From: an uncultured Verrucomicrobiae bacterium | GTDB lineage: Bacteria; Verrucomicrobiota; Verrucomicrobiia; Chthoniobacterales; JAFAMB01 | DNA length: 64,000 bases | Assembly (NCBI GenBank): GCA_963762565.1 | Contig: CAVXLD010000003.1 | Span: forward strand, 128,001-192,000 | Direction: 5' to 3' | In this document: positions 14,145-33,782 of the stretch, piece after piece | How positions within the stretch are numbered: the first letter of the stretch is position 1 | How the letters are laid out: every line of letters starts with the position of its first letter | The notes under the pieces: model-generated | The model's input: the letters and a program-made list of their open reading frames with translations, nothing else | What the model was told of the DNA's origin: nothing | Database searches by the model: none | Translations under genes and position numbers: made by a program

Positions 14145-15320
14145 TCAGTCCTCCCAGGGAAGGCCAACATAATTTTCGGCCAACGCGGTGGCTGCGGCAG
14201 AGGACGTTGTCAGATAATCTAACTCTGCTAACTGGCGTTTATATTCGAACGCATCATTATGATCGAACCGGTGCATCAGGCTGGTCATCCACCAGGAAAA
14301 CCTCTGTGCTTTCCATACTCTTCGCAGACAACGGTTAGAATAGGAATCCAATAGAGAGCTCTGGCCTTTTTGGTAGAAACTGACCAGAGCTCGGGCTAAC
14401 AACCAAACATCACCGACGGCAAGATTCATACCCTTAGCGCCGGTGGGCGGAACTACATGAGCGGCATCGCCCGCCAGAAATAAACGGCCGTATTGCATCG
14501 GTTCGGCAACAAAGCTTCTCATCGGGGTCACACTCTTCTGAAGAATCGCTCCGCGCCGGACGCGTTTGTCTCCGGGAAACGCGAGGCGCTTTTCGAGGTT
14601 CTCCCAGATCCGGTCATCGGACCACAGCGATAAATCTTCATCCGGGCGGCACTGAAGGTAAAGCCGGGTAATTTTCGGCGATCGCATGCTGAAAAGCGAA
14701 AACCCGTCCTCATGATTTGCGTAGATCAGTTCTTCCCAGCTCGGCGCCGCTTCCGCCAATATGCCCAACCAGGCAAACGGATAAGTCTTCTCAAAGAAGG
14801 TTAGTGTCCCGTGCGGAACTGCTGTTCGCGACACGCCGTGAAACCCATCGCAACCGGCGATCCAATCACAAGTGATCTCCTGGTTCTGTCCTTGATAACG
14901 AAAACTGACTCTGGGTTGGTTGGTCGCGGTCCCGTGGAGAGCAACCTCCGTCACCTCGAAGAAAATCTGGCCGCCGCGACTAATGCGGGCTGCGATCAGA
15001 TCTTTTACCACTTCGTGTTGCCCGTAAACCATGATTGCCTTCCCCGTAAGACTCGTGAAATCAATCCGGTGAAGCCGACCGGAAAACCCCAGGTTAATTC
15101 CTCCATGCGGCATCGCTTCTTTTTTCATTCGGTCTCCAATCCCACAGTCAGACAGGAGCTGCGCTGTCCCATGCTCGAGCACACCCGCCCGGATGCGCGA
15201 CTCAACGTACGAGCGGCTTTTATCTTCCAAGACGATCGATTCTACGTTCTCCAGCGAAAGCAGGTGGGAGAGTAGTAGTCCTGCAGGTCCGGCTCCAATG
15301 ATCGCGACTTGTGTGCGCAT
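14145..15320 (-). CDS. pobA: 4-hydroxybenzoate 3-monooxygenase
   Basis: MRTQVAIIGAGPAG, RIRAGVLE, GCDGFHG, GDAAHVVPPTGAKGMNLA, LAENYVGLP. Confidence 0.97.
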   Translation of the reverse strand: MRTQVAIIGAGPAGLLLSHLLSLENVESIVLEDKSRSYVESRIRAGVLEHGTAQLLSDCGIGDRMKKEAMPHGGINLGFSGRLHRIDFTSLTGKAIMVYGQHEVVKDLIAARISRGGQIFFEVTEVALHGTATNQPRVSFRYQGQNQEITCDWIAGCDGFHGVSRTAVPHGTLTFFEKTYPFAWLGILAEAAPSWEELIYANHEDGFSLFSMRSPKITRLYLQCRPDEDLSLWSDDRIWENLEKRLAFPGDKRVRRGAILQKSVTPMRSFVAEPMQYGRLFLAGDAAHVVPPTGAKGMNLAVGDVWLLARALVSFYQKGQSSLLDSYSNRCLRRVWKAQRFSWWMTSLMHRFDHNDAFEYKRQLAELDYLTTSSAAATALAENYVGLPWED

Positions 15321-15325
15321 ACGCC

Positions 15326-15460
15326 AGCTCGCCTGAGGCTCGCTGCCGAAATAGCAAATAGCAAATAGCAGATAGCAAAAGAGGCGCCCGAACTATCGGG
15401 CGCTGGTTGGCGGATCAATTTGCTATTTGCTATCTGCTATTTGCTATTCGGGGACGAGCT
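15326..15460. repeat. Inverted (TAGCAAA)n foldback element
   Basis: Same architecture as 1833-1967. Confidence 0.8.
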
Positions 15461-15494
15461 TCGGGTAAGTAGTGAAACATGTTATCAGTAGGTA

Positions 15495-15905
15495 TTATCT
15501 AGAGTCTGGCGCCGCCGAGTCGGTCGGACCCAATCTCTCTGCGATCACTTCTTCAGCAGCGTGAATTGCTGCGTTCGCGCCGGGTAACCCGCAATAGATG
15601 CCGGCGTGAAGCAGAAGTTCGCGGATTTCTTCAACGATTACCCCGTTATTTAGGGCCGCTCGAATATGCATCCGAAACTCTGGTTCGCGATTAAGAGCCA
15701 CTAACATTGCGAGCGTGATCAGGCTGCGTTCGCGGCGAGTTAACCCTGGCCTTTCCCAGATCTCGCCCCAGGCATACCGGGTAATAAACTCCTGGAACGG
15801 CCGGTTAAAGTCGGTCAGTTTCGCGTCCGCACGCCGAACATGCTCATTTCCGAGAACCGCGCGCCTGGTCTTTCGGCCTTGGTTGTAACGCTTTTTTTCG
15901 TCCAC
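15495..15905 (-). CDS. pcaC: 4-carboxymuconolactone decarboxylase
   Basis: RRAVLG..HV, FITRYAWGEIW.RPGL, RSLITLAML, YCGLP. Confidence 0.95.
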   Translation of the reverse strand: MDEKKRYNQGRKTRRAVLGNEHVRRADAKLTDFNRPFQEFITRYAWGEIWERPGLTRRERSLITLAMLVALNREPEFRMHIRAALNNGVIVEEIRELLLHAGIYCGLPGANAAIHAAEEVIAERLGPTDSAAPDSR

Positions 15906-15955
15906 GTTAATGATCCTTCAATAGAAAATCCAAGACGGCGCTGGCGAAGCCACGG

Positions 15956-17323
15956 TTATGCATGCTTCTTCTCCGGATCGGGTCGCTGGGACGTTAGGCG
16001 CAACACCCGGTTAATAAACTCATCCGCAGCGCCAAGCGCGTTCTCGGGAAGAAAGATCCGGTCAAGTGAATTTTGATCCAGCCATTTGGTGATGCTCGGA
16101 TCCTGTACCAGGACCTCATGCAAATGCAGCTCTTTCTGCTTGGCGCGTTGGCAGGCCAGCTTGATCACGCGATCGGCTTCCGGTTTGCCGACATACTGCG
16201 CCAGGCGAACCGAAACGTCTTCAGCATAAACCAACCCGTGCGTCGCATCGATATTCTCGCGCATTCGAGCTGCATCAATTTTTAAGCCGGAGAAAAGAGC
16301 ATTCGCATTTTGAACAGCTCCGCCGGTTAAACGGAGCATTTCGGTCAGCGGCCCCCATTCGCTATGCCAATGACCAACGGCTCGTTCATGTTCCTGCACC
16401 ATCGAAGCCGCCATCGTAGCCAGCAGCCCTGGAATCCGGGTGCAGGCGGCGATGATCATTGTCGGCGCGATCGGATTTCTCTTGTGCGGCATGGCTGAAG
16501 AACCGCCCTTGCCCTCGCCGCCTTCTTCAACTAACTCGCCGACCTCGGTCTGCATCAACAGCGCGGCGTCCATTGCAATCTTGTTCAGGCAGCCGGCCAG
16601 CATAGCCAGGCTCGCTGCAATCTCGAGTAACCGATCACGGGCTGTGTGCCATGTGATGACGGGTTCGGCCAGTCCCAAGCGTTCCGCCAGTCTGGTCAAC
16701 ACCGCTAACCCTCGGTCCCCGCTCGCGGCCAGCGTACCTACGGCGCCGCCGAACTGTAGAACTGTCGCAGACGTGCGCGCTCGCCTGAGATGTTGTCTGC
16801 AGCGGATCAGCTGATCGAGCCAGCCGGCGACTTTGAATCCAAAAGAAATTGGGCGGGCCTGCTGGAGCAGGGTCCGGCCTATCATCACGGTTCCCCGGTG
16901 TTCGCCTGCGAGGCCCGCCAGCCGGTCCTGCAAACGGCCCAAACCATTGTCTAACACGAACAGTGCCGCCTTGAGCTGCAGCATCTCTGCGCTGTCGATG
17001 ACATCTTGACTGGTGGCTCCAGCGTGCACATGATGTGCCGCTGCTCCACCGGTTTCGCCAGTTTCGCGCACCAGGGCGGTTAATTCTTTCACCAGGGGAA
17101 TGGCGGGGTTACCTGCATTTTTGGCTGCGGCGATAATCTTTTGTTGGTCGATTCGGGCCTCGTCGCATACGCGGGTGATCAGACTTGCTTGCTCAGCAGG
17201 AATCAATCTAACGTCCGCCTGCGCCTGAGCGAGAGCCGCTTCGAACCGCAACATCGCTCGGATGATCGCTTCATCCGTCAAGAGCGCCTCGATTTCGGAG
17301 TCCGTGAATAGTTGATCGAACAT
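15956..17323 (-). CDS. pcaB: 3-carboxy-cis,cis-muconate cycloisomerase
   Basis: GATSQD, GRTLLQ, GGSSAMPHKRNP fumarase-family signature; pca context. Confidence 0.95.
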   Translation of the reverse strand: MFDQLFTDSEIEALLTDEAIIRAMLRFEAALAQAQADVRLIPAEQASLITRVCDEARIDQQKIIAAAKNAGNPAIPLVKELTALVRETGETGGAAAHHVHAGATSQDVIDSAEMLQLKAALFVLDNGLGRLQDRLAGLAGEHRGTVMIGRTLLQQARPISFGFKVAGWLDQLIRCRQHLRRARTSATVLQFGGAVGTLAASGDRGLAVLTRLAERLGLAEPVITWHTARDRLLEIAASLAMLAGCLNKIAMDAALLMQTEVGELVEEGGEGKGGSSAMPHKRNPIAPTMIIAACTRIPGLLATMAASMVQEHERAVGHWHSEWGPLTEMLRLTGGAVQNANALFSGLKIDAARMRENIDATHGLVYAEDVSVRLAQYVGKPEADRVIKLACQRAKQKELHLHEVLVQDPSITKWLDQNSLDRIFLPENALGAADEFINRVLRLTSQRPDPEKKHA

Positions 17324-17341
17324 AACGGCCGTGAAAGGCTC

Positions 17342-17935
17342 TCAGAAATCGAAGAAGACGGTTTCACCCGGGCCCTGCAGAATCACGTTCCACACGTAGG
17401 AGTTCGGATCGGAAACTTCGGGTCGAGCAAAAAGGGTGGAGCGGCGTGCTGGCTCGATCAATTTCACTATTTCATCGGTGTTATTCCGCTCGTCTCCCAG
17501 GAAATAAATCCGCGTAACTAAGCGATCGAGTAATCCCCGCATAAAGATCGACACATTGATATGGGGTGCTTGTGGGACCCCGGTCGACGAAGGCACCGGA
17601 CCCGGTTTAACGGTGCGGAATATGAAAGTTCCATCCGGGTCTGTTGGACACCGGCCGAAGCCGCTGAACCCTGGTTCGAGCGGTTTATCCTGCTCGTCTT
17701 CCGGGTGAACATATTTTCCGAAACTGTTCGCCTGCCAAATCTCAATCACTGCATCCGGCACGGGCAATCGATCCGCATCCAGGATCCGGCCCTGCACTGT
17801 GATGATGGTCCCGGCTACACCAGGAACTGTGAGGTCAGTCTGGTAAAGATCCTCAAAACCAATCTCGAAGAATGGACCGACTGTTTGCGAGGCTGCGAGT
17901 AGCAGTAGTGCATTGCCCGGAGCGCGATCGGTCAT
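17342..17935 (-). CDS. pcaG: Protocatechuate 3,4-dioxygenase alpha subunit
   Basis: SQTVGPFF, EIWQAN, QAPHINV...RG, ETVFFDF. Confidence 0.95.
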   Translation of the reverse strand: MTDRAPGNALLLLAASQTVGPFFEIGFEDLYQTDLTVPGVAGTIITVQGRILDADRLPVPDAVIEIWQANSFGKYVHPEDEQDKPLEPGFSGFGRCPTDPDGTFIFRTVKPGPVPSSTGVPQAPHINVSIFMRGLLDRLVTRIYFLGDERNNTDEIVKLIEPARRSTLFARPEVSDPNSYVWNVILQGPGETVFFDF

Positions 17936-18642
17936 GGGCGGTTCTCCATCGGAGTGGCAAGTCGACCCCGCAATACGATGTCAAATTTGAAACTGAGCGC
18001 CTGCTCCGGGATGGTGGTCTGCCAGTCAAAGACCGAGATTAACCGTTGCCGGGCGGCTTCGTCGCGGATGCCGTTGAAAATTGGATCGAAAGGAATCAGC
18101 GAATCCCCCGGAAAATACATCTGGGTTACAAGGCGGGTAGCGAAAGCGGGACCAAACAACGAAAAATGAATATGAGCCGGACGCCATGCATTCGGATGAT
18201 TCCGCCACGGGTACGCGCCTGGCTTAATGGTAAAAAACTGATAGCGGCCTTCGTCATCCGTGATGAGCTGCCCTTTGCCGATAAAATTTGGGTCCAGCGG
18301 CGCGTCATGCTGATCGACGCGGTGCCGGTAGCGTCCGGCTGAATTGGCCTGCCAGATTTCAAGCAGCGTATGGGGGAGTGGTCTCCCGTCTTCATCGAGG
18401 ACTCTGCCCGAGACCAGGATCTTCTGTCCCAGAGGAGGGGCATCGCCGTGCAGGGTTAAATCGGCGCCAGCCTTAAGCTGATGCGCTTGGAAGCGCGGAC
18501 CGGTGACCTCCGAAAGAGTCTGCGGGATAGGTACCAGCGGCTGGCTGGGCGCACGTTTAACCGAAGAGATATAATCCGGGTGGAGATGGGGTGGGTGAAC
18601 GCCGAGAACAGGTTTTCGATAGGGACGAAGCGGGGTAAACAT
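17932..18642 (-). CDS. pcaH: Protocatechuate 3,4-dioxygenase beta subunit
   Basis: GRYRH, PGAYPWRNH, WRPAHIHFS Fe ligands; 4-bp overlap with pcaG. Confidence 0.97.
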   Translation of the reverse strand: MFTPLRPYRKPVLGVHPPHLHPDYISSVKRAPSQPLVPIPQTLSEVTGPRFQAHQLKAGADLTLHGDAPPLGQKILVSGRVLDEDGRPLPHTLLEIWQANSAGRYRHRVDQHDAPLDPNFIGKGQLITDDEGRYQFFTIKPGAYPWRNHPNAWRPAHIHFSLFGPAFATRLVTQMYFPGDSLIPFDPIFNGIRDEAARQRLISVFDWQTTIPEQALSFKFDIVLRGRLATPMENRP

Positions 18643-18658
18643 GGTCGTAAGCTCGGAT

Positions 18659-18673
18659 GTTCGTTAAACGAAC
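18659..18673. promoter_or_regulatory. PcaR/PobR-type operator upstream of pcaH
   Basis: GTTCGTTAAACGAAC (GTTCG-N5-CGAAC). Confidence 0.8.
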
Positions 18674-18793
18674 GCCTGTACGATAGCCGCCAAACAGGCT
18701 GCGGCGTTCTCTCCTACCTGTCAAACGCGAAATATCGCATACCAATCTGCCTGTGCAGTAGATAATGCACAGGAAATGATCGGCCCAAGATCC

Positions 18794-18974
18794 GGGAGGG
18801 CGCGTGTCCCCGCGCGCTGGGAAGGCGGTGCAACAGATGAGGCGTCGATTAACCCTGGGTTTGGGAGACGCCGGGCTTCGCGAACGGCGGATCGCGAGGA
18901 TCCGCCGTCGCCTAGATTGCGTCCCATTATTTCCCTGTTCGTGCAGGCTATGGCGGACAGGCAGCGATCCCTCC
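18794..18974 (+). repeat. Family A element with nested family C insertion
   Basis: Right REP split: gatcgcgagga[tccgccgtcgcc...ggctatggcggacaggca]gcgatccctcc. Confidence 0.85.
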
Positions 18975-18990
18975 ACGATGGCCGACTACC

Positions 18991-19821
18991 TCAACCAAGA
19001 TGGCCGAGACAGGAAGAAATATTCTTGGCGGCTCTCTGTAGAATCGGCAGGAATTGCTGCAAGAGTTCGGTTTTAGACGTACGCGGCGCCTGAGTGCCAA
19101 TATTGATCGCAGCCACCGCTTTGCCGCCTCTGGAAAAAATCGGTACCGCTAACGAACGCAGGCCTATTTCCAATTCCTGGTCCACTAACGCGTATCCCTG
19201 GCGGGCAACAGTCTTCAACTCTTTGCGCAGCAGCTCGGGCTGGCAAATGGTCCGTTCAGTGAACCGGCTGAGGACGGCGATTTTGAAATAGTGTTCGAGC
19301 GCTTCCGGCGGCAAGTTAGCCAATAGAGCTCTGCCCATAGAGGTACAGAACGCGGGCAGCCGGCTGCCAATGCCTATGGATACAGACATGATGCGCCGCG
19401 TTTGGACCCGAGCGACGTAGACAATGTCCTGGCCATCCAAAACCGATGCCGAGGATGATTCTTTCGTCTCGTGGGTGACTTCTTCGAGGAAACGCTCCGC
19501 GATCTTGGGCAATGAAAACGAGGAAAGATAAGCGAACCCAAGATCGAGAATCTTAGCGGTGAGTCGAAAATATTTTCCATCGGTGGTGACATATCCTAGT
19601 TGCACCAGCGTGTATAAGAAGCGCCGGACGACAGCGCGCGCCAAGCCGGTTCTCTCTGCGACTTCGCTCAAGGTCAACGCGTCCGGATCACGCAGGCTAG
19701 ATCGAGCCTGCGGTTTGAGGTCTTGGACACCGAACGCTTTGATGATTTCAATTCCTCTAGCCAGTGAAACGACAAAATCGGGGGTAGCAGCAAAGGATGG
19801 AGGAGAGGTCTGCTTGGGCAC
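18991..19821 (-). CDS. pcaR: IclR family regulator of the beta-ketoadipate pathway
   Basis: FVVSLARG, LSEVAERTGLARAVVRRFL, GSRLPAFCTSMGR, DQELEIGLRS. Confidence 0.92.
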   Translation of the reverse strand: MPKQTSPPSFAATPDFVVSLARGIEIIKAFGVQDLKPQARSSLRDPDALTLSEVAERTGLARAVVRRFLYTLVQLGYVTTDGKYFRLTAKILDLGFAYLSSFSLPKIAERFLEEVTHETKESSSASVLDGQDIVYVARVQTRRIMSVSIGIGSRLPAFCTSMGRALLANLPPEALEHYFKIAVLSRFTERTICQPELLRKELKTVARQGYALVDQELEIGLRSLAVPIFSRGGKAVAAINIGTQAPRTSKTELLQQFLPILQRAAKNISSCLGHLG

Positions 19822-20173: not shown

Positions 20174-20271
20174 GGGACGCAAATGCCGACCCGCAAGCAT
20201 CGACCTGCTTATGACGAAGCCCCATTTTCCGCACCCAATCTCAAGTGGGCGTTACTCATCTCCTGAGTACC

Positions 20272-21093
20272 ATGGCTAAAATCCTCCCACTGGCCGACGC
20301 GGTCGCGGAACTAGTCAACGACGGCGATCGGGTGGCTTGCGAAGGATTCACCCACCTAATTCCGTTCACAGCCGGACACGAAATCATCCGGCAACAGAAA
20401 AAGAACCTGACCCTGGTCCGTCTGACACCGGACCTCATTTACGATCAAATGATTGGGATGGGGATTGCAGCCAAATTGGTGTTCTCCTGGGGAGGTAATC
20501 CGGGCGTGGGTTCTCTTCACCGCCTGCGCGACGCGGTAGAACAACAATGGCCGGCAAAGCTTGAGATCGAAGAGTTCAGCCATGCCGGCATGGTACAAGC
20601 CTACAGTGCCGGTGCGGCCGGTTTACCTTTTGGAATTCTCCGCGGATTTACCGGAACGGATCTACCTAAAGTGAATCCGAAGATTAAGTCTATCACCTGT
20701 CCCTTTACTGGTGAGATCCTGGCAGCGGTTCCTGCCATTAGGCCCGACGTTGCCGTGATCCATGCTCAAAAGGCCGATCGGGAAGGCAACGTCCTGATCT
20801 GGGGAATTATCGGAGTGCAGAAAGAAGTCGTGCTCGCTTCCAAACGCGCGATCGTGACTGTCGAAGAAATTGTTGACCGGCTTGAGCCGCCTCCAAACGC
20901 CTGCGTATTACCGAGTTGGGTGGTCTCGGCGGTTTGTTTGGCTCCAGGAGGAGCGTATCCGTCGTACGCGCAAGGTTATTACGAGCGGGACAACCGCTTT
21001 TATCAAGCGTGGGATGAGATCAGCAGGTCACGCGAAGAATTTCTGAGCTGGATGAAGCTCAACGTCCTGGCAGGTTCCGCAACACCCAAATAA
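20272..21093 (+). CDS. pcaI: 3-oxoadipate CoA-transferase subunit A (CatI/GctA-like)
   Basis: EGFTHLIP..AGHEIIRQ, FSWGGNPGVGSLHR; pca context. Confidence 0.88.
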   Translation: MAKILPLADAVAELVNDGDRVACEGFTHLIPFTAGHEIIRQQKKNLTLVRLTPDLIYDQMIGMGIAAKLVFSWGGNPGVGSLHRLRDAVEQQWPAKLEIEEFSHAGMVQAYSAGAAGLPFGILRGFTGTDLPKVNPKIKSITCPFTGEILAAVPAIRPDVAVIHAQKADREGNVLIWGIIGVQKEVVLASKRAIVTVEEIVDRLEPPPNACVLPSWVVSAVCLAPGGAYPSYAQGYYERDNRFYQAWDEISRSREEFLSWMKLNVLAGSATPK

Positions 21094-21123
21094 AGCACAC
21101 ACAAACCACAGAAGGGCACAAAG

Positions 21124-21279
21124 ACAGAAAATTTTTCACAGAAGCTAACGAAGCAAACGAAGGACTGAGGCGAGAGGTTTCTGTGCCACTTTTGACCTCT
21201 TTCCTTCGTTATCTTAGTTACCTTCTGTAAAGAACCTCTGTCTTTGTGGCCTTTGTGATCTTCTGTAAGAAAGATTCTT
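21124..21279. repeat. About 155-bp direct repeat, copy 2
   Basis: Near-identical to 20019-20173. Confidence 0.85.
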
Positions 21280-21284
21280 AGGAG

Positions 21285-22067
21285 ATGGACTACACAGCAG
21301 ACGAGATTATGACGGTTTCGGCGGCGCGAATGCTTCGGGACCAGGCAGTTTGTTTCGTCGGGATCGGGCTTCCCTCGAAGGCCGCTAACCTGGCCCGACT
21401 AACCCATGCTCCTGACCTTGTCCTGATTTATGAATCCGGGCCGATCGGCGCCAAACCCTCGGTTCTTCCTCTCTCGATCGGTGACGGCGAACTTTCGGTG
21501 ACAGCGGATACGACGGTTTCGACCGGTGAGATTTTCAGCTTCTGGCTCCAGGGCGGAAAAATTGATGTTGGATTCCTCGGCGCCGCCCAGATTGATCGAT
21601 TTGCAAATATCAATACTACGGTAATCGGGAGCTACGAGCATCCGAGGGTTCGATTGCCCGGCGCGGGCGGTGCTCCGGAAATCGCGGGTTCAGCCGGGGA
21701 GGTTTACCTCGTGCTAAAGCAGGCCCGCAAGACGTTTGTTGAACGCCTGGATTTTGTGACCTCGGTTGGTCATGGAGACGGTGGCGACTATCGGAAGCGC
21801 CTCGGCTTGCCAGGAAAAGGTCCGGTTGTAGTCATCACCGACCTTGGAATTTTTTGTCCAGATCAGAACACGCAGGAACTAACCCTTGCGAATATTCACC
21901 CGGGCCAGGAAATCGACGAAATTCGCGCAAGAACGGGCTGGGACCTGAAAATATCGGAGGATCTACGGTTAACTCAGCCACCAACCGAAGAGGAACTGGC
22001 TGTGCTGCGGGAACTTGAGCGTCGCACGGCGGAGGCGCACGGTTTGAGAATAGCAAATAGCAAATAG
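21285..22067 (+). CDS. pcaJ: 3-oxoadipate CoA-transferase subunit B (CatJ/GctB-like)
   Basis: CFVGIGLP, LIYESG catalytic Glu, RLPGAGGAPEIA. Confidence 0.88.
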   Translation: MDYTADEIMTVSAARMLRDQAVCFVGIGLPSKAANLARLTHAPDLVLIYESGPIGAKPSVLPLSIGDGELSVTADTTVSTGEIFSFWLQGGKIDVGFLGAAQIDRFANINTTVIGSYEHPRVRLPGAGGAPEIAGSAGEVYLVLKQARKTFVERLDFVTSVGHGDGGDYRKRLGLPGKGPVVVITDLGIFCPDQNTQELTLANIHPGQEIDEIRARTGWDLKISEDLRLTQPPTEEELAVLRELERRTAEAHGLRIANSK

Positions 22068-22258: not shown

Positions 22259-24436
22259 ATGTCACGTTGTCGGCCGGTGGCGCGACGTTTTTCCCTCGGT
22301 CGCGCTTTGGGAGTCTTAGCAGCCTCTATGTTGGCTGTTAGCAGTTTGATGGTTTCGGCATTCGCCGAGAATAATGGTGTTTCTCTGGCGCCTCAGCTAG
22401 GATGGAGCAGTTGGAGCTTTGTCCGAAGAGGCCCGACGGAAGCGATCATCAAAGCGCAGGCTCTGGCAATGCACCAGAATCTGCAATCCAGCGGGTTTCA
22501 ATATGTCAATCTCGACGATTTCTGGTACCTAGATCCGCGGGTCACGGTGGACGCTTACGGTCGTTGGGTTCCTGATCCCATAACATTCCCGGACGGAATG
22601 GCGGCGCTCGGCGCCTACATTCATAGCCTGGGACTGAAATTCGGGATGTATATCACGCCTGGTATTCCCGTGGCCGCCGTTAAGGCGAATACTCCGATTG
22701 AAGGCACTCACTATACGGCCAAAGACATCGCCGATGTTCCCCAATATGAGATCAATTACAATTTCGGCAACGTTAACTATTATATCGACTTCACCAAGCC
22801 GGGAGCACAGGCATTCATTGACTCCTGGGCTAAACTTCTTGCGTCTTGGGGTGTCGACTACATAAAATTGGACGGGGTAGGAACTTGGGATGTCCCCGAT
22901 GTGATTGCCTGGTCGCAAGCGCTAAATAAGAGCGGGCGAGAGATTCATTTTGCTCTTTCTAACTCGCTCAGTCTGAATGCGGCGACCACTTGGGAAGCGT
23001 ACGCCAATAGCTGGCGTATCACTGGCGACGTTGAGTACTATCACAGTTCGGTTTATCCGCTGACAAGTTGGAGTAAAGTCCTCAATCATTTTCAGTCAAT
23101 GCCGCAGTGGACTGCGTTTTCGGCCCCTGGCCGCTGGCCGGATCCGGATTCATTAGAGATCGGAAACGGGTCACTGGACGGAATAAATTCGGACGGCAGC
23201 GCGTTCACGCAAAACGAACGGCAAACGCTGTTCAGCTGGTGGTGTGTTACGGCAGCGCCCCTCATACTAGGAACTGATCTGACCAGTAATACCGATTCCT
23301 ACGATTACTCCTTGCTACATACTAGTGAGGTGATCGCGGTTGATCAGGCGGGGGTCCAGGCAGCTCCGGTGGTGGATTATTTGAATAGCGATCCGAATGG
23401 GACTCAGCCTGAAACCTGGCGGGCTAAGGAAGCTGACAGCAGTTTCGTCGTTCTGGCATCCAATCCGTCAGGAAATACGCAGACCGGGACAACCGTTTGG
23501 TCGCTCTTTGGCATCCCAGGACCGGTAATGGTCCGCGACCTCTGGAACGGAGTTAACCTCATCGGAACCCCAAATGAGGATGGCGGATACCAAATTCCGG
23601 GTCCGCTGCCTTTCAGCCTTTCGGCATATCAGAGCCAGCTCCTAAAGGTGACGCCTATGGCGCCGATAACGCAATATCTGGTGAACGGCCCGAATTCGCA
23701 GCTGCTGGGTTCAGCTGTGTATGCGCAAGCCAATACTTGCAGCGACGGTACCAAGGCAAGCTACATTGGAAATGGGGGATCGATCGTATTCGGGAATGTT
23801 TATGCAGCAAAGGCCGGCACCTACACCCTCTCGATTCTGTATTTCACAGATCCGGCTCGCCCCAGCACAATCAGCGTTAACAATGGAGCGGCGGTGACCG
23901 TAACGTTTCCTAGCACCGGCTCTTTTTCGACGCTTGGGGCGATCACTCAGCCGGTGCTGCTCAACGCCGGCTACAATACGATAACGATTTCCGGGTCTGG
24001 CGGTTCCTACGCGCCTGACATCGATTCGATCACGGTCCCAGCAACCACCACTCAGTACCTGGCAGACGCGGCGAAATTTACCGGCAAGGACGTCGCAATC
24101 GTCGCCTCGCCTGAGGGCACCGACGGAAAGAAACTCTCGGTTAGCCAAGGAGGCAATTACACGGTTACGTTTGACGTGTCCATTGCCAGCGGTGGAGCTC
24201 ACTCACTGTTGATATTGTATCTCTCCGGGTCGGCGGCATCGGCTGATATCAAAGCCAGTTCATCAAAAGCGGTGGTTGTGAATTTTCTTTCGACGAGCGG
24301 CAATCCGGGAAATTCGGATGTCGTTGGCGTAGCCAATGTAAATCTGGACCTCCGGCAGGGTTCGAATACGATCACGATTTCTTCGGTTTCCAAAGAGACG
24401 GCTCCTGACCTTGATTCAATCATCGTGGTCGAGTAG
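22259..24436 (+). CDS. Secreted GH27 alpha-galactosidase with two C-terminal CBM35/CBM6-like modules
   Basis: PQLGWSSW, VNLDDFW, DYIKLD, WRITGD, DPDSL; repeated L..G.NTITIS....APD.DSI. Confidence 0.9.
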   Translation: MSRCRPVARRFSLGRALGVLAASMLAVSSLMVSAFAENNGVSLAPQLGWSSWSFVRRGPTEAIIKAQALAMHQNLQSSGFQYVNLDDFWYLDPRVTVDAYGRWVPDPITFPDGMAALGAYIHSLGLKFGMYITPGIPVAAVKANTPIEGTHYTAKDIADVPQYEINYNFGNVNYYIDFTKPGAQAFIDSWAKLLASWGVDYIKLDGVGTWDVPDVIAWSQALNKSGREIHFALSNSLSLNAATTWEAYANSWRITGDVEYYHSSVYPLTSWSKVLNHFQSMPQWTAFSAPGRWPDPDSLEIGNGSLDGINSDGSAFTQNERQTLFSWWCVTAAPLILGTDLTSNTDSYDYSLLHTSEVIAVDQAGVQAAPVVDYLNSDPNGTQPETWRAKEADSSFVVLASNPSGNTQTGTTVWSLFGIPGPVMVRDLWNGVNLIGTPNEDGGYQIPGPLPFSLSAYQSQLLKVTPMAPITQYLVNGPNSQLLGSAVYAQANTCSDGTKASYIGNGGSIVFGNVYAAKAGTYTLSILYFTDPARPSTISVNNGAAVTVTFPSTGSFSTLGAITQPVLLNAGYNTITISGSGGSYAPDIDSITVPATTTQYLADAAKFTGKDVAIVASPEGTDGKKLSVSQGGNYTVTFDVSIASGGAHSLLILYLSGSAASADIKASSSKAVVVNFLSTSGNPGNSDVVGVANVNLDLRQGSNTITISSVSKETAPDLDSIIVVE

Positions 24437-24466
24437 ACCCGGTTGGGACTGCACCCATCGCCGAAA

Positions 24467-24709
24467 CGGAGAGGAGCCGCATTCCGCGCTCTATCATCGC
24501 CGGCGTTCTTCCATACACGACGCTCCGCGTCTCAAGCATGTATTATCTGCGGCTCCCTTGATCGCTTGACCAGACCCCCAAACGTGCAACCTCAAACGGC
24601 TTGGTACGGTCTTCGGGGCGTCGCGGTTGTGGCACAGGACAAACGTTGCGCTTACTCTTAGGTCGCAGACGCGATCGGTATAGCAACTCTGAATGCAACG
24701 CCCCTCCGT
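24467..24709. repeat. Family F MITE-like repeat upstream of the tubulin-like gene
   Basis: cggagaggagccgcattc ... gaatgcaacgcccctccg; core shared with 4399-4514. Confidence 0.7.
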
Positions 24710-24890
24710 TCCTCCTCTGGTACAGCTCAGGATGCGAACCAGACCTATAACACGGTATAGGATTGTTAGTTACAACCTCGAATCATGCGTTTCGCGGCTT
24801 CTTTTTGTTCGACGATCGAAAATTCTCGCGTTCGTCCCTTGCTCCGCGAGTGGGCACATCTAGACTGAAGGGAACTCCCGATATCTGTAC

Positions 24891-26963
24891 ATGAATGCGA
24901 CCGAATTGAACGTAAACGAGTCCGTCTCAGGAGCTGAAGAAACGGTAAGGCCGACGCCTGAGGGATTAATTCTTGCCGAAATTACAAACACCGTGACGCA
25001 GTTTAATGTCGAAGACATTCTGCAACGGCTGAAAGCCTTCGCCCAGAGTCTGAAGCAGCATCCTAAATCGTCACGGGACCACGCCGGCGATGTAGCCCTG
25101 CCGACCGTGGGAATTATTGGGATGGGCCGGTGCGGAACGAATATCGCCATCGACCTGGCCAATCTGGTGTACGAACAACGGAAGATTGGAATAAAAGAAC
25201 TATCACGTCGTGGGCGCGCCATGGCAAAGCGCCAGTCGCCCGCTGAGAAAAGATCGGAATCAAGCCATACTCGATCTGCCAACGGAAAAGCGGACGCGCC
25301 TTCATTCTGGGAACGCCTCTTTGGAGAAAAATCTGATCGTGATCAGGTGTTTCTGGTCGACCCAGTCATTCTCACGGCCGACCTGGACGGGGATACCACG
25401 CAAAGAATCAAGGTGGCGAATCCGACGCTTACCCAAGGCGCGCTCAGGTTCGGGATCACGGAGCTCGATTGGCTTAACCGGGGCGGTGCTGGCAATATCC
25501 CCGTCGTAGGACATTATTTGGCGACCTTGGCGCTCTTGGCCGAGGCAAAACCTGAAACGCCTTGGGCTCGCCACCGGAGCTACCTCGTCGATTCTTCCGG
25601 GTTGGCGGCCAATGCCTCCCGCCTTTTTTTCTATCTATTTAGCGCGGGCGGCGGATCGGGATCCGGTATGGCGCCGGTGTTTGGCCGGGCTCAACAACAA
25701 GCCCGAATGGTCAACGTAAAGCGGCAACGCCCAACCGGGCAGTCAACGCGGGAATATACAGAGGCGCTGTGCAGCGTTGGTGTCGCTGTTCTTCCGGATA
25801 TTTTGAGGACCGCGCATTCCCAGCATTACAACGCTGGCCGCCTTTTGTGCGAGTACTTGGCTTCGCTGAATCGCTTCGAACAAAGCTTCGATCCCGCGAC
25901 GGGCATGCCGCTACCGACATTTAATTGTTTGTTACTGGTGTCGAACACGGTGGTTCATCACGCGCTTGGTGAACGCTTTTCTTCCGAAATATACGCGGTC
26001 AAGGCTGAGCAGCTCGCGAACAAATATGTGGCTCGGCAACTCTTTAACCTGCTGACCGCACAAGCGTTGGTCGAAGATTATCGGATCACGGATCCAAAGG
26101 TAATTCCCGCAATGAATGCGGCAGGCATCAGTCTCGATGATACGACGAAGCTTGATATTAACGACTTGGAGAATTCGTTAAGCGGCACAGCCGTGATTGG
26201 GTACGCCGAGCAATTCGGGCATGAAGATTTCGGACAGCTGTTCCTGCGAGCGGTTTCTCCTGCCTCGTATAATTCGGACAATGAAGTTTTTGAAGGTATT
26301 AGCCTGCTTCCAAACAAATTTGAGGATTACCAGGCGACAATCGAGGCCTGCCGCAAGAATAACTCGATCGAACAGCTGCGAGACTTGGCCTTGTTTGGAA
26401 AAGCTTTGTCCGTAGTCGCAATTGTGTCGGCTCCACGGTCAGAACTATTTGAGCAATACAATCTTCGCAAGGTGCATGAAAATATAGAATCGCTTTTTCC
26501 GAACGCGACGATCAAGCGTTATGCGCTCATCTTGGGTGCTTCGGAGAATTGTTCCTTGACCCTGATTATTTCCGGCAGTGCATGTCTGGTGCCGGACGCG
26601 TTGTTTGCCATTCGAAATTATATCTTTGGTTGCTTCGTCGCCGACAACGGGCAACAGGAGCGTTTCACGCAGGTATTTAACCAACTTATGTCGAACCGTC
26701 AGTTTGAGCCTGGCGAGTTGGCTTCGATGCTGCGAGACAAAGAATCGCTAGACCCGATCATTGTGGGTATGGGCAGCCAAGGAGCCTGGCGCCGGCGGAA
26801 ACAAGAATTGGAATTGAGAGCTCAAAGCTTAAACCCGCGCAATGTCCCAAATAGTGCGCCGCCAGTAGTCGTAGAAGATGTTCTGCTTTCGAGACAGGAG
26901 GTAATCGACGCGTTGGAGTACATACATAGGGTGAGCAGTTTCCATAGACCGGTGACGGTTTAG
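24891..26963 (+). CDS. Divergent tubulin/FtsZ-superfamily GTPase
   Basis: IGMGRCGTNIA (T1), ADLD (T2), GGAGN (T3), SAGGGSGSGM (T4 signature), LLLVSN (T6), LDINDL (T7). Confidence 0.85.
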   Translation: MNATELNVNESVSGAEETVRPTPEGLILAEITNTVTQFNVEDILQRLKAFAQSLKQHPKSSRDHAGDVALPTVGIIGMGRCGTNIAIDLANLVYEQRKIGIKELSRRGRAMAKRQSPAEKRSESSHTRSANGKADAPSFWERLFGEKSDRDQVFLVDPVILTADLDGDTTQRIKVANPTLTQGALRFGITELDWLNRGGAGNIPVVGHYLATLALLAEAKPETPWARHRSYLVDSSGLAANASRLFFYLFSAGGGSGSGMAPVFGRAQQQARMVNVKRQRPTGQSTREYTEALCSVGVAVLPDILRTAHSQHYNAGRLLCEYLASLNRFEQSFDPATGMPLPTFNCLLLVSNTVVHHALGERFSSEIYAVKAEQLANKYVARQLFNLLTAQALVEDYRITDPKVIPAMNAAGISLDDTTKLDINDLENSLSGTAVIGYAEQFGHEDFGQLFLRAVSPASYNSDNEVFEGISLLPNKFEDYQATIEACRKNNSIEQLRDLALFGKALSVVAIVSAPRSELFEQYNLRKVHENIESLFPNATIKRYALILGASENCSLTLIISGSACLVPDALFAIRNYIFGCFVADNGQQERFTQVFNQLMSNRQFEPGELASMLRDKESLDPIIVGMGSQGAWRRRKQELELRAQSLNPRNVPNSAPPVVVEDVLLSRQEVIDALEYIHRVSSFHRPVTV

Positions 26964-27061
26964 TGTGCTCGGCTAGCCGCGCACGTGAGAAGTGAGAAGT
27001 GATAAGTGATTGGTGATTGGTGATTGGGTACGAGGCGCGAAAGAAGCTTATGGGCCTGCAG

Positions 27062-27793
27062 TTAGGCCACGAGATCTTCGTCCCATTTTTCGGCTGTTAC
27101 CGGCACCTTCCCAGCGATCAAGTCTGCGAATGCGAGCAAAGTTTTAAGCGCATCACCGACTGGATAGTAGAAGGCGTCCCAATGCTCGCTGTCTTCGCCG
27201 TCGTGGTTTGGGATGACATAATCGAAATGCCAAGCGTCTTTCAATTCGGTGTATGCGCTTGTCGCGCGGCGTTCGATGTTTTCGAGATCCTTCAGGGACA
27301 AAGTCCCTTTTTGCCGTTGGGTGCGCCGCAACAGCTTGTGACGCATCACATCGGTCAGAAAATCCGGCAACGAGACGTTGCGTGATTTCAAAAATACGAT
27401 CTCCGCGCGCGACAGGGGCGAGAGAAAAACGGTCAGCAGATTCACTTTTGCCGTCAGCGCTTCCTGCAGTCTCCGCCCGACAAAAGGATTGCCCTCGAAA
27501 AAGAGCTCGCCCGTCGCAGAGGCCCGATCGAGATCACTTAAATCGACGGCTTGCAGGTCTCCTCGCACATCAAGAACAATAAAATTTTCTCGTTTGCGGA
27601 AGGTTTCGATTTCTTCTCGCGGTCGGAACCAATAGTCTTTGCCATCGATTTCGCCGGGTCGGGGGGAACGACAATTGTAAAGCACGAGCTTGCGCAAACT
27701 CGCGGCTGATTCGGGATAAAATTTTAAGAACGCGTGGTGAAGCGGGCCTTTGCCGACACAGGACGGACCGGAAAGGATAATGAATCGTCCCAT
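27062..27793 (-). CDS. gmk: Guanylate kinase-like protein (atypical, long)
   Basis: ILSGPSCVGKG P-loop; RSPRPGEIDGKDYWF. Confidence 0.75.
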   Translation of the reverse strand: MGRFIILSGPSCVGKGPLHHAFLKFYPESAASLRKLVLYNCRSPRPGEIDGKDYWFRPREEIETFRKRENFIVLDVRGDLQAVDLSDLDRASATGELFFEGNPFVGRRLQEALTAKVNLLTVFLSPLSRAEIVFLKSRNVSLPDFLTDVMRHKLLRRTQRQKGTLSLKDLENIERRATSAYTELKDAWHFDYVIPNHDGEDSEHWDAFYYPVGDALKTLLAFADLIAGKVPVTAEKWDEDLVA

Positions 27794-27901
27794 GTAAGAA
27801 ACAGAGCTAGGCTAGATCAGGATTCAAGCGCATAGTTGCCCCGGCTCAATAGCTCCGTAACGTAAAACCGCCGACATTTTTGCGACGGTCTGAGGCAACA
27901 T

Positions 27902-28402
27902 ATGAGCAATACGGAATCACTGAAAAAGCTCGTTGGGAATTGGTTGATCGATGTGCAACGGCGCGGGGCTGAGCTCTACGCCGAGAACCAGGCAGATGAA
28001 GCGTTGTACCTTTCGTTTGAAGGACGGGATCTACTGCGATTCGCCGTCAGGATCGATTTCGTGGCTCAGGAAATAATGGTGCACATTAATAGCGCCGCGC
28101 TGAGCACCGCTAAGCGCGAAAGTTTTATATTAAATGAGGAGAGTCTTCGCTCGCTGGCGAAACAAATGTGTCCCGTTCGGGAAGGACAGGCGATTATTTC
28201 TGTCTATGTTCTCGCCCGGCTGGCGATTATGTGCCACGCCTATCAACGCTTGTTGGAAGAATACGACCGGGAACACCACATTCATACATCAACACATACG
28301 GTGCAGGAGATCGAAGCTGATCTGCGCGAGTGTCTGACTCCTGAGGAACAGCAAAGGACCGAAAATCCTTTCTTACGACAGAAGAGTGAAGGGGTGAAAT
28401 GA
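27902..28402 (+). CDS. Hypothetical protein
   Basis: 166-aa ORF with gagg RBS; no family recognised. Confidence 0.65.
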   Translation: MSNTESLKKLVGNWLIDVQRRGAELYAENQADEALYLSFEGRDLLRFAVRIDFVAQEIMVHINSAALSTAKRESFILNEESLRSLAKQMCPVREGQAIISVYVLARLAIMCHAYQRLLEEYDREHHIHTSTHTVQEIEADLRECLTPEEQQRTENPFLRQKSEGVK

Positions 28403-28545
28403 GTCCTATAGTCAGGGAGGTTTTTTGTCCCGAAGAGACTACAGGACTCAGCCTGGGGTTTTAACCTGGCTAAAGCCCTGGGTTACGCGATTAACAAATG
28501 CGCCCTGAAAGCACTTCCAACCCCGCCTTATCGGGGTGCAATTCG

Positions 28546-28674
28546 GGGAGGGCGCGTCCTCGCGCGCCGCGAGGACGTGCCACCACCAAGCGGCCTATTT
28601 TCTTCCGGGATCAAAACACGCCCCCGGTTTCGGTCACGATCCGGCAGGTGCCGGGCGAGGACGCGATCCCTCCC
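28546..28674 (+). repeat. Family A element
   Basis: GGGAGGGCGCGTCCTCGCGCGC ... GCGAGGACGCGATCCCTCCC. Confidence 0.8.
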
Positions 28675-28734
28675 GCCTCGTGCGCCTTCAGCATCTCCAA
28701 CCCCGCGTCCGCGGGGTGCTTTTCGGACTTGGCG

Positions 28735-28895
28735 CAATACTCCAATACTCCAACACTCCGCGTGGCCGGATTCGAGGACAGCCTGTCCGCCGTAGCCTAG
28801 AGGCTCCATGTTGCCAACCGCTCGAAGTCGGCCTCGCAAGCGAGGCGCGCTCCACAACCAAGGAGTCGGCGAAGGCGGAAGGACGAGAACGAACG
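28735..28895. repeat. Nested E/C/D repeat with octamers (reverse of 11458-11635)
   Basis: ttcgaggac|agcctgtccgccgtagcc..gtcggcctcgcaagcgaggcgcgctccac..ggcgaaggcgga|aggacgagaacg. Confidence 0.8.
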
Positions 28896-28964
28896 AAGCG
28901 GGAAGATAATGTCTTGGGAAATTTGAAAGAATTGCTCCAGATTGTGTCTATTCCGTAGCGATCC

Positions 28965-29417
28965 ATGAAAGACAAACTCATCATCGTCGTCGATCTTGGT
29001 CTAGTCAGGGCGTATCGAATTGAGCTGAGTCCACAGCGAACTCCGCGCCTACAACAGCTCCAGCAGGTGGTGCTGGATGAGGCGCATAGCCGGATAAAGG
29101 ATCGAGTCACGGATTTTGCGGGCAGACATGGATCACCAACGCAAAAAAGTCGGAGTGCGCCAAAGGCGGATGACCAAAATCTTAAGCTCGAATCCAAACG
29201 ACGTCTGATTCGTCAGATTGCTGTCAGGATCACCCAGATCATCCAGCAGAATGCCAAGAACGGATGTTGGTTGGCTGCGCCGAAGGAAATCAATTTGCAA
29301 ATACTGAACGAATTACCTCCGGCGGCCCGAGAGCGGATCCAGAAGACTGTGCCATGTGATTTTACCAAGCTTAGTCCCGCGGAGGTGCTGGAACACTTTC
29401 TGGAACGGACTGTGTGA
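28965..29417 (+). CDS. Host attachment protein family (baeRF-like)
   Basis: LIIVVDLGLVRAY...VTDFAGR...LAAPKEI...DFTKL. Confidence 0.75.
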   Translation: MKDKLIIVVDLGLVRAYRIELSPQRTPRLQQLQQVVLDEAHSRIKDRVTDFAGRHGSPTQKSRSAPKADDQNLKLESKRRLIRQIAVRITQIIQQNAKNGCWLAAPKEINLQILNELPPAARERIQKTVPCDFTKLSPAEVLEHFLERTV

Positions 29418-32837: not shown

Positions 32838-33782
32838 GTGAATCGCATCGACAGACTGGTCGCTATCCTGATCCATCTCCAAGGGCGCAGGGTGACCCGC
32901 GCCGAGGATATTGCCGATGAGTTTGCCACCAGTATTCGGACGGTTTATCGGGACATTGCCGCTTTGGCGGAAGCGGGTGTCCCGATCGTCGGTGAGGCCG
33001 GCGTCGGGTACAGCATCGTAAGAGGGTATCATCTTCCACCTGTGCATTTCACTACCGAAGAAGCGACCGCACTGATCACAGCCAATCTGCTGATGGATCG
33101 CTTCGCCGACAAGTCGTTGATGTCGCCGATGGGTTCTGCTTTGGCGAAGATCCGAGCCGTTTTGCCGCCGGATCATCAGGACCATATCACTCGGCTCGAG
33201 AGCCGGATGTCGCTGCCGACCAGTCCGCGGCCTACGCGGTCAGCCAGTCTCTTCGCCATCCAAAAGGCCTTGGCCGAACGCACCGTGTTGCGAATTTCTT
33301 ATTGTGGCGCCGGCAAGGCCGAATCTTTCCCACGCCAGATCGAACCCATGGGGCTGACCTACTATGGAGATCGCTGGCATTTGATTGCTTGGTGCCGCAT
33401 GCGCAAGGATTATAGGGATTTCCGGACAGACCGAATTCAGGAGCTAGCGGTTGTGCCTGAACGCTTCGAACCGCGCACGAACTTTTCGCTCGACGAATTC
33501 CTGCAGCGATCGGACCAGACAAGGACGACGGTAACAGCCGTAATCCGAGTCGACGCAGTGACTGCCGAGCGGGTTCGTAAGGAAGCGCCATTCAAGATTG
33601 TGCGAGAAGCGCGCGCGGAAAATGACGTCACCTTCGTGATCGAGGCTGGTAACTGGGATTGGTATATGGGCTGGTTTCTCTCGTTTGGATCTCGCGTTAC
33701 GATCATCGAACCGGATGCGTTCCGCGTGCGGTTGTTTGAGGTAGCACAGGCGACTGCGAACCATCACGGCGGGGCGGTGTGA
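32838..33782 (+). CDS. HTH-WYL-WCX transcriptional regulator (YafY/PafB-like)
   Basis: RIDRL, SIRTVYRDI, EPMGL....WHLIAWC..R...R.FRTDRI, C-terminal WFLSFG...IEP. Confidence 0.93.
   Translation: MNRIDRLVAILIHLQGRRVTRAEDIADEFATSIRTVYRDIAALAEAGVPIVGEAGVGYSIVRGYHLPPVHFTTEEATALITANLLMDRFADKSLMSPMGSALAKIRAVLPPDHQDHITRLESRMSLPTSPRPTRSASLFAIQKALAERTVLRISYCGAGKAESFPRQIEPMGLTYYGDRWHLIAWCRMRKDYRDFRTDRIQELAVVPERFEPRTNFSLDEFLQRSDQTRTTVTAVIRVDAVTAERVRKEAPFKIVREARAENDVTFVIEAGNWDWYMGWFLSFGSRVTIIEPDAFRVRLFEVAQATANHHGGAV

Follow-up and report, generated by a model that had tools for sequence, protein, structure and literature searches.

A 64-kb stretch of DNA from an uncultured Verrucomicrobiae bacterium, analysed here as a whole and referred to as the window, carries a stand-alone gene for a 690-amino-acid (aa) protein in which tubulin-like and FtsZ-like nucleotide-binding motifs stand side by side. 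The question raised by this locus is whether such a mosaic represents a new branch of the tubulin/FtsZ superfamily or a relative of one of its FtsZ-like families, two alternatives that had both been put forward in the original prediction, and what kind of cellular role is compatible with it. With regard to classification, the second alternative is the correct one. The window protein is a full-length homolog of FtsZl2 and a non-proteobacterial member of that named family, not a new branch of the superfamily. Throughout the text, coordinates are positions in the window and residue numbers are those of the 690-aa window protein.

FtsZl2 was defined by Makarova and Koonin in 2010, with PFL_1302 of Pseudomonas fluorescens Pf-5 as the type protein. 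It was described from this type and "several other Proteobacteria", with T1, T4, T6, T7 and H7 all present, no coiled coil, and a mixed alpha/beta C-terminal region of about 300 aa for which similarity to nothing was detected (PMC2875224). The 12 members listed in supplement 1 of the same paper come from Pseudomonas (5), Marinomonas (2), Psychromonas, Cellvibrio, Pseudoalteromonas, Chromobacterium and Laribacter, and three of these genera, Pseudomonas, Psychromonas and Laribacter, are also found among the loci studied here. BLASTP places residues 40-681 of the window protein (690 in all) in colinear alignment with the 727-aa Pseudomonas putida ortholog of PFL_1302 (locus L046), at 33% identity and E=1e-99. 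The P. putida protein and the alignment rows P0044-P0050 share long blocks with the FtsZl2 rows of supplement 2, including PFL_1302 and Pfl01_1250, and the window protein matches P0044-P0050 with E values of 1e-80 to 1e-85. In a protein atlas, moreover, it adjoins clusters of Pseudomonadota proteins of about 730 aa, one of which had been automatically named "Tubulin-like protein". Because the homology is colinear over the full length and the blocks are shared, FtsZl2 membership in the broad sense is considered established at the sequence level. The window protein has in common with PFL_1302-type proteins the T1/T2/T3/T4/T6/H7/T7 blocks, a length of about 700 aa, the lack of a coiled coil, the C-terminal alpha/beta region of about 300 aa and a stand-alone gene without conserved neighbours. 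It differs from them in being only 31-35% identical to the proteobacterial members, in its host, which belongs to the Verrucomicrobiota (Chthoniobacterales-like), in its position outside the proteobacterial clade and in a T4 loop that reads GGGSGSGM instead of GGGTGSGM.

As regards the extent of the family, a word-seeded search returned 51 proteins, comprising 32 full-length sequences (78-97% identity), 4 fragments and 15 distant relatives (29-45% identity). The sole named protein among the 32 close ones comes from a Chthoniobacterales metagenome-assembled genome (MAG), and MAGs of Verrucomicrobiota/Chthoniobacterales hold the closest relatives of the window protein; the named distant relatives belong to SAR86, Agarivorans, Shewanella and Aeromonas. 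An exhaustive profile search gave 182 representative clusters at E<=1e-3, 73 of them at E<=1e-30, and when 185,579 species representatives were scanned, one genome for each species, at least 568 relatives were confirmed. The proposal of a new branch is therefore abandoned: the family has been on record since 2010, and relatives are encoded in at least 568 of the species-representative genomes. Placement inside a well-characterised family had been expected to remove the novelty of the protein; the family found has a name but is uncharacterised. Its typical members (P0001, P0045, P0053 and others) are annotated as hypothetical because they score below threshold with every Pfam and NCBIfam model, an annotation gap that concerns a family present in at least 568 species. 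In the window protein, the Pfam scan gave only a sub-threshold match to Tubulin (PF00091; 19.4 bits against a cut-off of 33), confined to the T4 loop at residues 245-271, with no match to FtsZ_C or to PF13809 (Tubulin_2), and the NCBIfam scan gave nothing relevant.

For the study of gene context and phylogeny, 80 of the relatives' loci were kept, which belong to Pseudomonadota (75; mostly Pseudomonas, Alkalimonas, Rheinheimera, Colwellia, Alteromonas, Agarivorans and Psychromonas, with one Laribacter), Verrucomicrobiota (4) and Saprospiraceae of the Bacteroidota (1). A FastTree tree of 116 rows comprised 79 of the 80 loci, 34 database proteins, two fusion proteins trimmed to their tubulin-like part and P0084; L004 was left out as a partial sequence (about 372-382 aa). 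All 75 Pseudomonadota rows lie on one side of a branch with a support of 100, and the window protein belongs to a sister assemblage, which has 26 rows and a support of 85 and is made up of the verrucomicrobial clade, the Saprospiraceae protein and metagenomic sequences. The family tree largely follows taxonomy, and its topology is to be taken as indicative only, given the many long branches in this assemblage, a fast method and no outgroup. Two rows with betaproteobacterial labels, L041 (Laribacter) and L039 (labelled Paucimonas), are nested among Pseudomonas sequences, which suggests gene transfer or a mislabelled bin. What is new is that FtsZl2 reaches beyond Proteobacteria, to Verrucomicrobiota and Bacteroidota. 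The window protein lies outside the "Proteobacteria only" range of the original description, and a non-proteobacterial member is treated here as widening the range of the family, not as a ground for exclusion.

The next question is whether the protein retains what a GTPase of this superfamily requires. The 690-aa open reading frame (ORF) and all eight motifs quoted in the original prediction were confirmed in the translation, in the order given there. The gene and the protein are laid out as follows.

24891..26963, plus strand: whole gene, including the stop codon, with an ATG start, for the 690-aa FtsZl2-family tubulin/FtsZ-like protein
24891..25100, plus strand: N-terminal extension, residues 1-70, poorly conserved, with predicted helices at residues 23-37 and 40-54
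25101..26066, plus strand: nucleotide-binding (GTPase) domain through helix H7, residues 71-392, S1-S6 alternating with H1-H7
25119..25142, plus strand: T1 loop GMGRCGTN, residues 77-84, tubulin-like (G.CG.N)
25173..25355, plus strand: charged family-specific insert between H1 and S2, residues 95-155, whose length and sequence vary across the family
25380..25388, plus strand: T2 loop DLD, residues 164-166, within ADLD (residues 163-166)
25482..25496, plus strand: T3 loop GGAGN, residues 198-202, within GGAGNIPVVG (residues 198-207)
25641..25670, plus strand: T4 signature SAGGGSGSGM, residues 251-260, within FSAGGGSGSGM (residues 250-260)
Residues 299-315: AVLP...QHYNA motif
25941..25946, plus strand: T6 loop SN, residues 351-352, kept in 116/116 rows, within LLLVSN (residues 347-352)
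26007..26027, plus strand: H7 motif E...N.Y, residues 373-379, overlapping ANKYV (residues 376-380)
26151..26168, plus strand: T7 "synergy" loop LDINDL, residues 421-426, with the two acidic residues D422 and D425
26184..26579, plus strand: canonical FtsZ/tubulin C-terminal domain, residues ~432-563, a beta-sheet with helices H9 and H10
26580..26960, plus strand: family-specific helical C-terminal extension, residues ~564-690 (127 residues)

The first of the eight motifs, around the T1 loop, is IIGMGRCGTNIA (residues 75-86). No variation is seen in the predicted nucleotide loops of a 22-sequence alignment in which identity falls to 26%. Among the 116 rows, every one keeps G77, G79, C81, G82, D164, G199, G201, G254, G255, G257 and G259, as well as P302, N314, G316, R317, S351, N352, N377, D425 and L426; D422 is kept in 115, the remaining row having E, and the nucleotide-loop residues as a whole in 101-116. 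The patterns GRCG.N, S.GGG.GSGM, SN, E...N.Y and LD.NDL, all present in the window protein, are kept in 93-116 of the rows. T7/H8 is the most conserved segment, and the N-terminal extension and the insert at residues 101-155 are the least conserved. The motifs are not a product of chance, since 116 family sequences from at least three phyla agree at these positions, and a complete set of predicted GTP-binding loops (T1-T6 and H7), together with an acidic T7, is shown in the window protein by this alignment.

The mosaic character of these motifs can be appreciated against the reference rows in supplement 2 of PMC2875224. There, tubulins have GQCGNQ in T1, VDLEP in T2 and HSLGGGTGSGM in T4, and FtsZ has GGGGGNA or GGAGNN in T1, GAGANPE..VG in T3, GGGTGTG in T4 and N[VL]DFAD in T7; RLDANDL is marked as T7 in the same alignment. 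In the window protein, GRCGTN, ADLD and GGGSGSGM are tubulin-like, and GGAGNIPVVG and LDINDL are FtsZ-like, the D422/D425 pair having the D-x-x-D spacing of DFAD. The tubulin-FtsZ mosaic, as first described, is accurate; judged from the alignment, it is a property of the whole FtsZl2 family and not of the window protein alone.

Predicted structures lead to the same superfamily. The AlphaFold model of the full-length protein has a mean predicted local distance difference test (pLDDT) score of 75.6 and a predicted template modelling (pTM) score of 0.82, with low confidence mainly at residues 1-18, 57-65 and 115-154. A Foldseek search of the PDB with this model gave at least 500 matches at E<=1e-3, and the 48 matches listed are all FtsZ, CetZ, tubulin or TubZ. 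Among those listed, the best is CetZ2 (4b45_A; E=7.5e-11), with a template modelling (TM) score of 0.76 normalised to the 334-residue target, followed by FtsZ (0.63-0.75), TubZ (0.59; 4ei7_B) and tubulins (0.53-0.59). Since a TM score of 0.76 over the whole CetZ chain is beyond the reach of the GTPase domain alone, the second domain must be matched too. As a direct test of this second domain, residues 418-690 were folded separately with 19 homologs. This isolated model (pLDDT 67.9) matched 31 PDB chains at E<=1e-3, the listed ones all being members of the superfamily, and FtsZ chains aligned with it over about 145-152 columns at a root-mean-square deviation of 3.5-5 A. Superfamily membership and the two-domain architecture are thus borne out by AlphaFold and Foldseek, and the models show a complete predicted tubulin/FtsZ fold.

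The models also bear on the regions that surround this core. Strands and helices alternate over residues 432-563 and are followed by short helices up to residue 690, without a long coiled coil. The C-terminal region that had been reported without similarity to anything is therefore modelled as a canonical FtsZ/tubulin C-terminal domain plus a helical extension of about 125 aa, which is new for the family. For this extension, no structural match was found when the 418-690 model was compared with the PDB. In the 22-sequence alignment, it contains two invariant residues, E618 and K637, and three others that are at least 90% conserved (W633, E641 and Y677). The insert at residues 95-155 contains 15 lysines and arginines and 9 aspartates and glutamates, and its residues 115-154 have pLDDT values below 50. 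Of the extensions first proposed for this protein, the N-terminal one of about 70 aa and the charged insert after T1/H1 agree with the model, whereas the region after T7 turned out not to be merely helical. Neither a transmembrane segment nor a clear amphipathic membrane-targeting helix was found in the window protein, whose top 19-residue hydropathy window lies within residues 556-574, inside the folded core. The role first suggested, that of a non-division cytomotive or membrane-remodelling GTPase, is a candidate one; neither the sequence and models nor the open-access literature searched yielded anything that points to membrane remodelling.

CetZ is a non-division paralog that coexists with FtsZ. 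In the published superfamily alignment, an archaeal row that bears no label in the paper and that we take to be CetZ-type has a tubulin-like G.CGN T1 loop (PMC2875224). CetZ, the archaeal cell-shape protein, provides the best structural match (4b45_A) but shares only 13% identity and no significant sequence match with the window protein, which is about twice as long through its extensions. With FtsZ, the window protein shares the two-domain fold (TM 0.63-0.75), the D-x-x-D spacing of T7 and a superposable C-terminal domain (3.5-5 A); it differs in its gene lying outside a dcw (division) cluster in the window, in T1, T2 and T4 loops nearer to those of tubulin, in the lack of FtsZ_C and in its large extensions. 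Tubulin and BtubA/B have in common with it T1 G.CG.N, T2 DL(D/E), T4 GGG(S/T)GSGM and extra C-terminal helices after the second domain, and Verrucomicrobia is the phylum that hosts BtubA/B (PMC9871819). Unlike BtubA/B, however, the window gene is single and not part of an A/B pair, its T7 is of the FtsZ type (D..D), and the TM scores with tubulin and BtubA are 0.20-0.59 at 10-14% identity (full-length and 418-690 models). FtsZl1 (Tubulin_2, PF13809) is a divergent "FtsZ-like" family from the same 2010 study. It has a coiled coil, vWA/OmpA operons and a T6-H7 region that was not confidently identified, and membrane remodelling was proposed for it in 2010 from its operon (PMC2875224). The window protein, in contrast, has T6, H7 and T7, does not match PF13809 and has no vWA/OmpA operon in the window.

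Regarding function, the reading that we consider reasonably probable, given the conserved residues and the modelled fold, is that of a divergent non-proteobacterial FtsZl2 member that binds GTP, assembles head to tail and hydrolyses GTP in a T7-coupled manner. According to this reading, the window protein would bind GTP and assemble into protofilaments, in which the T7 loop (D422/D425) of one subunit would complete the GTPase site of the next, and hydrolysis would be linked to filament dynamics, as it is in tubulin, FtsZ, TubZ and CetZ. Lateral contacts or the binding of lineage-specific partners would most likely involve the variable N-terminal helices, the charged insert between H1 and S2, and the conserved helical C-terminal extension. 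Filament formation was also predicted for FtsZl2 by the 2010 authors, in their reply to reviewers (PMC2875224).

Several points weigh against this proposal. Polymerisation and GTPase activity are inferred, with conserved residues and fold as their whole basis, and no experiment on any FtsZl2 member was found in the open-access literature and bioRxiv. Solved filaments have nothing equivalent to the H1-S2 insert (61 residues), the N-terminal extension or the C-terminal extension (127 residues), and these parts could alter or block canonical filament contacts. Sequence and profile searches of all PDB chains gave 0 matches, the Pfam Tubulin score of 19.4 bits is well short of 33, identity to solved structures is just 11-14% among the Foldseek matches listed, and the isolated 418-690 model is of moderate confidence (pTM 0.48). 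Finally, the "non-division" character of the protein draws on its local context and on what PMC2875224 states about Proteobacteria.

These same additions give some room to the alternative, rather unlikely in our view, of a non-polymerising GTPase or regulator, in which the tubulin fold and nucleotide binding would be kept in a monomer/dimer switch or a scaffold and the extensions would do the real work. The size of the family-specific parts (the N-terminal extension, the 95-155 insert and the 564-690 extension) is compatible with it, as are the lack of a conserved gene for a filament-associated partner and the conserved residues of the C-terminal extension, which suggest that this part has a function of its own. 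However, T7 has no use other than hydrolysis at the interface between two subunits, and yet it is the best-conserved segment of the protein (D425 116/116, D422 115/116), and the C-terminal domain, which carries T7 onto the next subunit, is retained. Head-to-tail assembly into protofilaments is preferred.

Whether the surroundings of the gene help to assign a role is a separate matter. The gene is apparently monocistronic, as it is separated by a gap of 455 bp from the gene upstream and the gene downstream is convergent; the scan for promoters and terminators around it gave nothing better than shuffled sequence. The local guanine-cytosine content is unremarkable, with 0.55 at 24001-26000 and 0.51 at 26001-28000, against 0.51-0.59 across the window. 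Its two immediate neighbours are the following.

Upstream, ending 455 bp before the FtsZl2 gene: gene for a GH27 alpha-galactosidase with carbohydrate-binding modules
27062-27793, minus strand, downstream and convergent: gene for a divergent guanylate-kinase-like P-loop protein of 243 aa

In the guanylate-kinase-like protein, the Pfam Guanylate_kin match covers residues 2-72 only, and the gene is probably not the housekeeping gmk, because its score of 57.7 bits is far below the NCBIfam equivalog cut-off of 160. It was rejected as a partner of the FtsZl2 gene, as it occurs only in the near-identical loci L001 and L004 and is absent beside the 81%-identical homolog in L003. The alpha-galactosidase gene is common to L001 and L002, and the guanylate-kinase-like gene and a gene for a 166-aa protein to L001 and L004. 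Shared neighbours in Verrucomicrobiota are thus confined to genomes 89-96% identical to the window, and L003 (81%) has other neighbours. In L003, a gene for a 938-aa Ser/Thr protein kinase (positions 3-2816 of that locus, minus strand) lies on the opposite strand and ends about 1.3 kb upstream of the FtsZl2 homolog, at this single locus.

For the context survey, ORFs were called crudely in the 80 loci and the window region and were then clustered. No neighbour cluster common across lineages was found in this set. The largest cluster corresponds to an MHYT-GGDEF-EAL protein from 28 sources, mostly of the Pseudomonas type, where RapA and an MFS transporter are recurrent neighbours as well. Alkalimonas and Rheinheimera have ETF and ETF-QO next to the gene, Agarivorans has sucAB/CD and PFK, and Colwellia has UvrA, GNAT and acetyl-CoA synthetase. 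The recurrent neighbours are lineage-specific housekeeping genes. Two candidate clusters were discarded: "cluster 1", considered as a paralog of the target, has no BLAST link to it and is the MHYT-GGDEF-EAL protein, and the Pseudomonas ORFs of "cluster 4", which lie upstream and are rich in Arg, Ser, Ala and Pro, are shadow frames of a dehydrogenase gene that runs divergently on the minus strand. The stand-alone nature of the gene holds, given the absence of a conserved partner across loci and its ordinary metabolic surroundings. The related claim that no partner lies nearby stands for dcw genes, a TubR-like gene and an A/B pair, but it had overlooked the guanylate-kinase-like gene directly downstream (27062-27793). 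In the 2010 study, FtsZl2 was likewise without associated genes, from which its authors concluded that there was no functional clue (PMC2875224).

The remainder of the window is devoted to protocatechuate catabolism, glycoside hydrolases and leucine catabolism. A protocatechuate/beta-ketoadipate pathway cluster occupies 14145-19821 on the minus strand and encodes an FAD-binding monooxygenase-family protein, a CMD-family decarboxylase, a lyase, the alpha and beta subunits of a dioxygenase and an IclR regulator; it is followed by genes for CoA-transferase subunits (20245-22067). On the other side of the FtsZl2 gene, 28965-29417 (plus strand) encodes a 150-aa protein that matches Host_attach and the bacterial eRF1-like family 12 (baeRF), flanked by small ORFs without a family match at 27902-28402 and 28536-28958. 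An HTH-WYL-WCX transcriptional regulator, of a type that often controls stress or defence genes, is encoded at 32838-33782 (plus strand) among neighbours without a family match.

Within the whole 64-kb window, no dcw gene, second tubulin-like gene, mobile-element gene, TubR-like gene or integrase was found, and the Rfam and tRNA scans gave 0 matches each. This context bears on two further explanations. One is that the protein is the organism's own cell-division FtsZ in a highly divergent form, an idea for which the unusually divergent verrucomicrobial FtsZ reported in PMC9871819 could be invoked. This is very improbable, as dcw genes are missing from the window, Pfam Tubulin is below threshold and FtsZ_C is unmatched, and the protein is orthologous to FtsZl2, which coexists with conventional FtsZ in Proteobacteria according to the 2010 paper (PMC2875224).

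The other explanation is a DNA-segregation tubulin of a mobile element. TubZ and PhuZ, which share the superfamily fold with the window protein, are encoded on plasmids or phages, and a TubZ- or PhuZ-like role could account for the Foldseek match to TubZ (4ei7_B, TM 0.59), for the 9 matches at E<=1e-3 in a library of viral structures (phage FtsZ, tubulin or PhuZ-like) and for the helix-turn-helix (HTH) domains fused to some relatives. The viral matches, however, are all weaker than the cellular ones, and FtsZ and CetZ score above TubZ and PhuZ. Furthermore, tblastn with both the window protein and the P. putida member detected no relative in 72,556 plasmids or in 50,697 phage genomes, and an adaptor (TubR-like) gene, an integrase and a tRNA are all absent near the gene. 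An origin as a mobile-element segregation protein is accordingly held to be hardly credible. The gene is chromosomal, lies outside a division (dcw) cluster in the window and is not part of a plasmid or phage segregation system.

Fusions in distant relatives raise a last alternative, in which a filament-forming domain would serve as the sensor or scaffold that activates an effector in a conflict or defence system. A domain scan of 12 distant proteins revealed fusions in 3, all outside the verrucomicrobial clade. In P0052 (1079 aa), a TIR_2 domain (E=2e-31) precedes the FtsZl2 module, and PADLOC candidate-system models match still further towards the N-terminus; P0056 (895 aa) and P0088 (409 aa) have N-terminal XRE-type HTH domains. 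Longer fused forms of 1209-3450 aa were not found, in a search that by its own rating provides weak evidence. Together with the sparse species distribution (at least 568 among 185,579 representatives), the TIR_2 and PADLOC matches and the HTH domains are what speaks for a defence role. We nevertheless regard it as quite improbable for the window protein, whose best PADLOC match has only E=0.038 and whose gene has metabolic neighbours and no mobile-element genes in 64 kb. In Gammaproteobacteria the neighbourhoods are stable, lineage-specific and of a housekeeping type, taxonomy is by and large mirrored in the tree, no relative was found in the plasmid and phage collections, and the fusions are limited to 3/12 distant proteins scanned and to none in the verrucomicrobial clade. 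What the fusions hint at is a second use of the module, in some lineages, as a switch or scaffold; they say little about the window protein, for which GTP-dependent filament assembly remains the favoured reading.

A bolder view, which we regard as doubtful, is that the extended FtsZl2 proteins form an independent, strictly chromosomal tubulin-type cytoskeleton in at least three phyla, distinct from FtsZ, BtubA/B, TubZ/PhuZ and FtsZl1, with a filament platform that would be read by the C-terminal extension. If this were true, the TIR- and HTH-fused relatives would represent the same polymer module used as a switch for NADase signalling or DNA binding, and the verrucomicrobial clade would stand apart as a subfamily with partners of its own.

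The published record on these families is short. Among the papers listed from the open-access literature and bioRxiv, only the 2010 paper and a 2011 review concern FtsZl1 and FtsZl2, judging by titles and abstracts, and a search of the same sources with the 12 original locus tags gave nothing beyond the 2010 paper. For TIR in combination with tubulin, these sources gave a single paper, on a jumbo phage. A survey of the superfamily from 2023 left out the divergent "FtsZ-like" sequences of Tubulin_2, and FtsZl2 is not treated in the part seen (PMC9871819). The new points on the family presented here do not make the window gene a new kind of system. They do concern one of the few tubulin/FtsZ branches for which no experimental data were found, although it is present in hundreds of species, including tractable Pseudomonas. 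With a wider range of phyla, a canonical C-terminal domain, no relatives in the plasmid and phage collections and TIR and HTH fusions in some lineages, FtsZl2 becomes a more clear-cut subject for a first study by biochemistry and cell biology.

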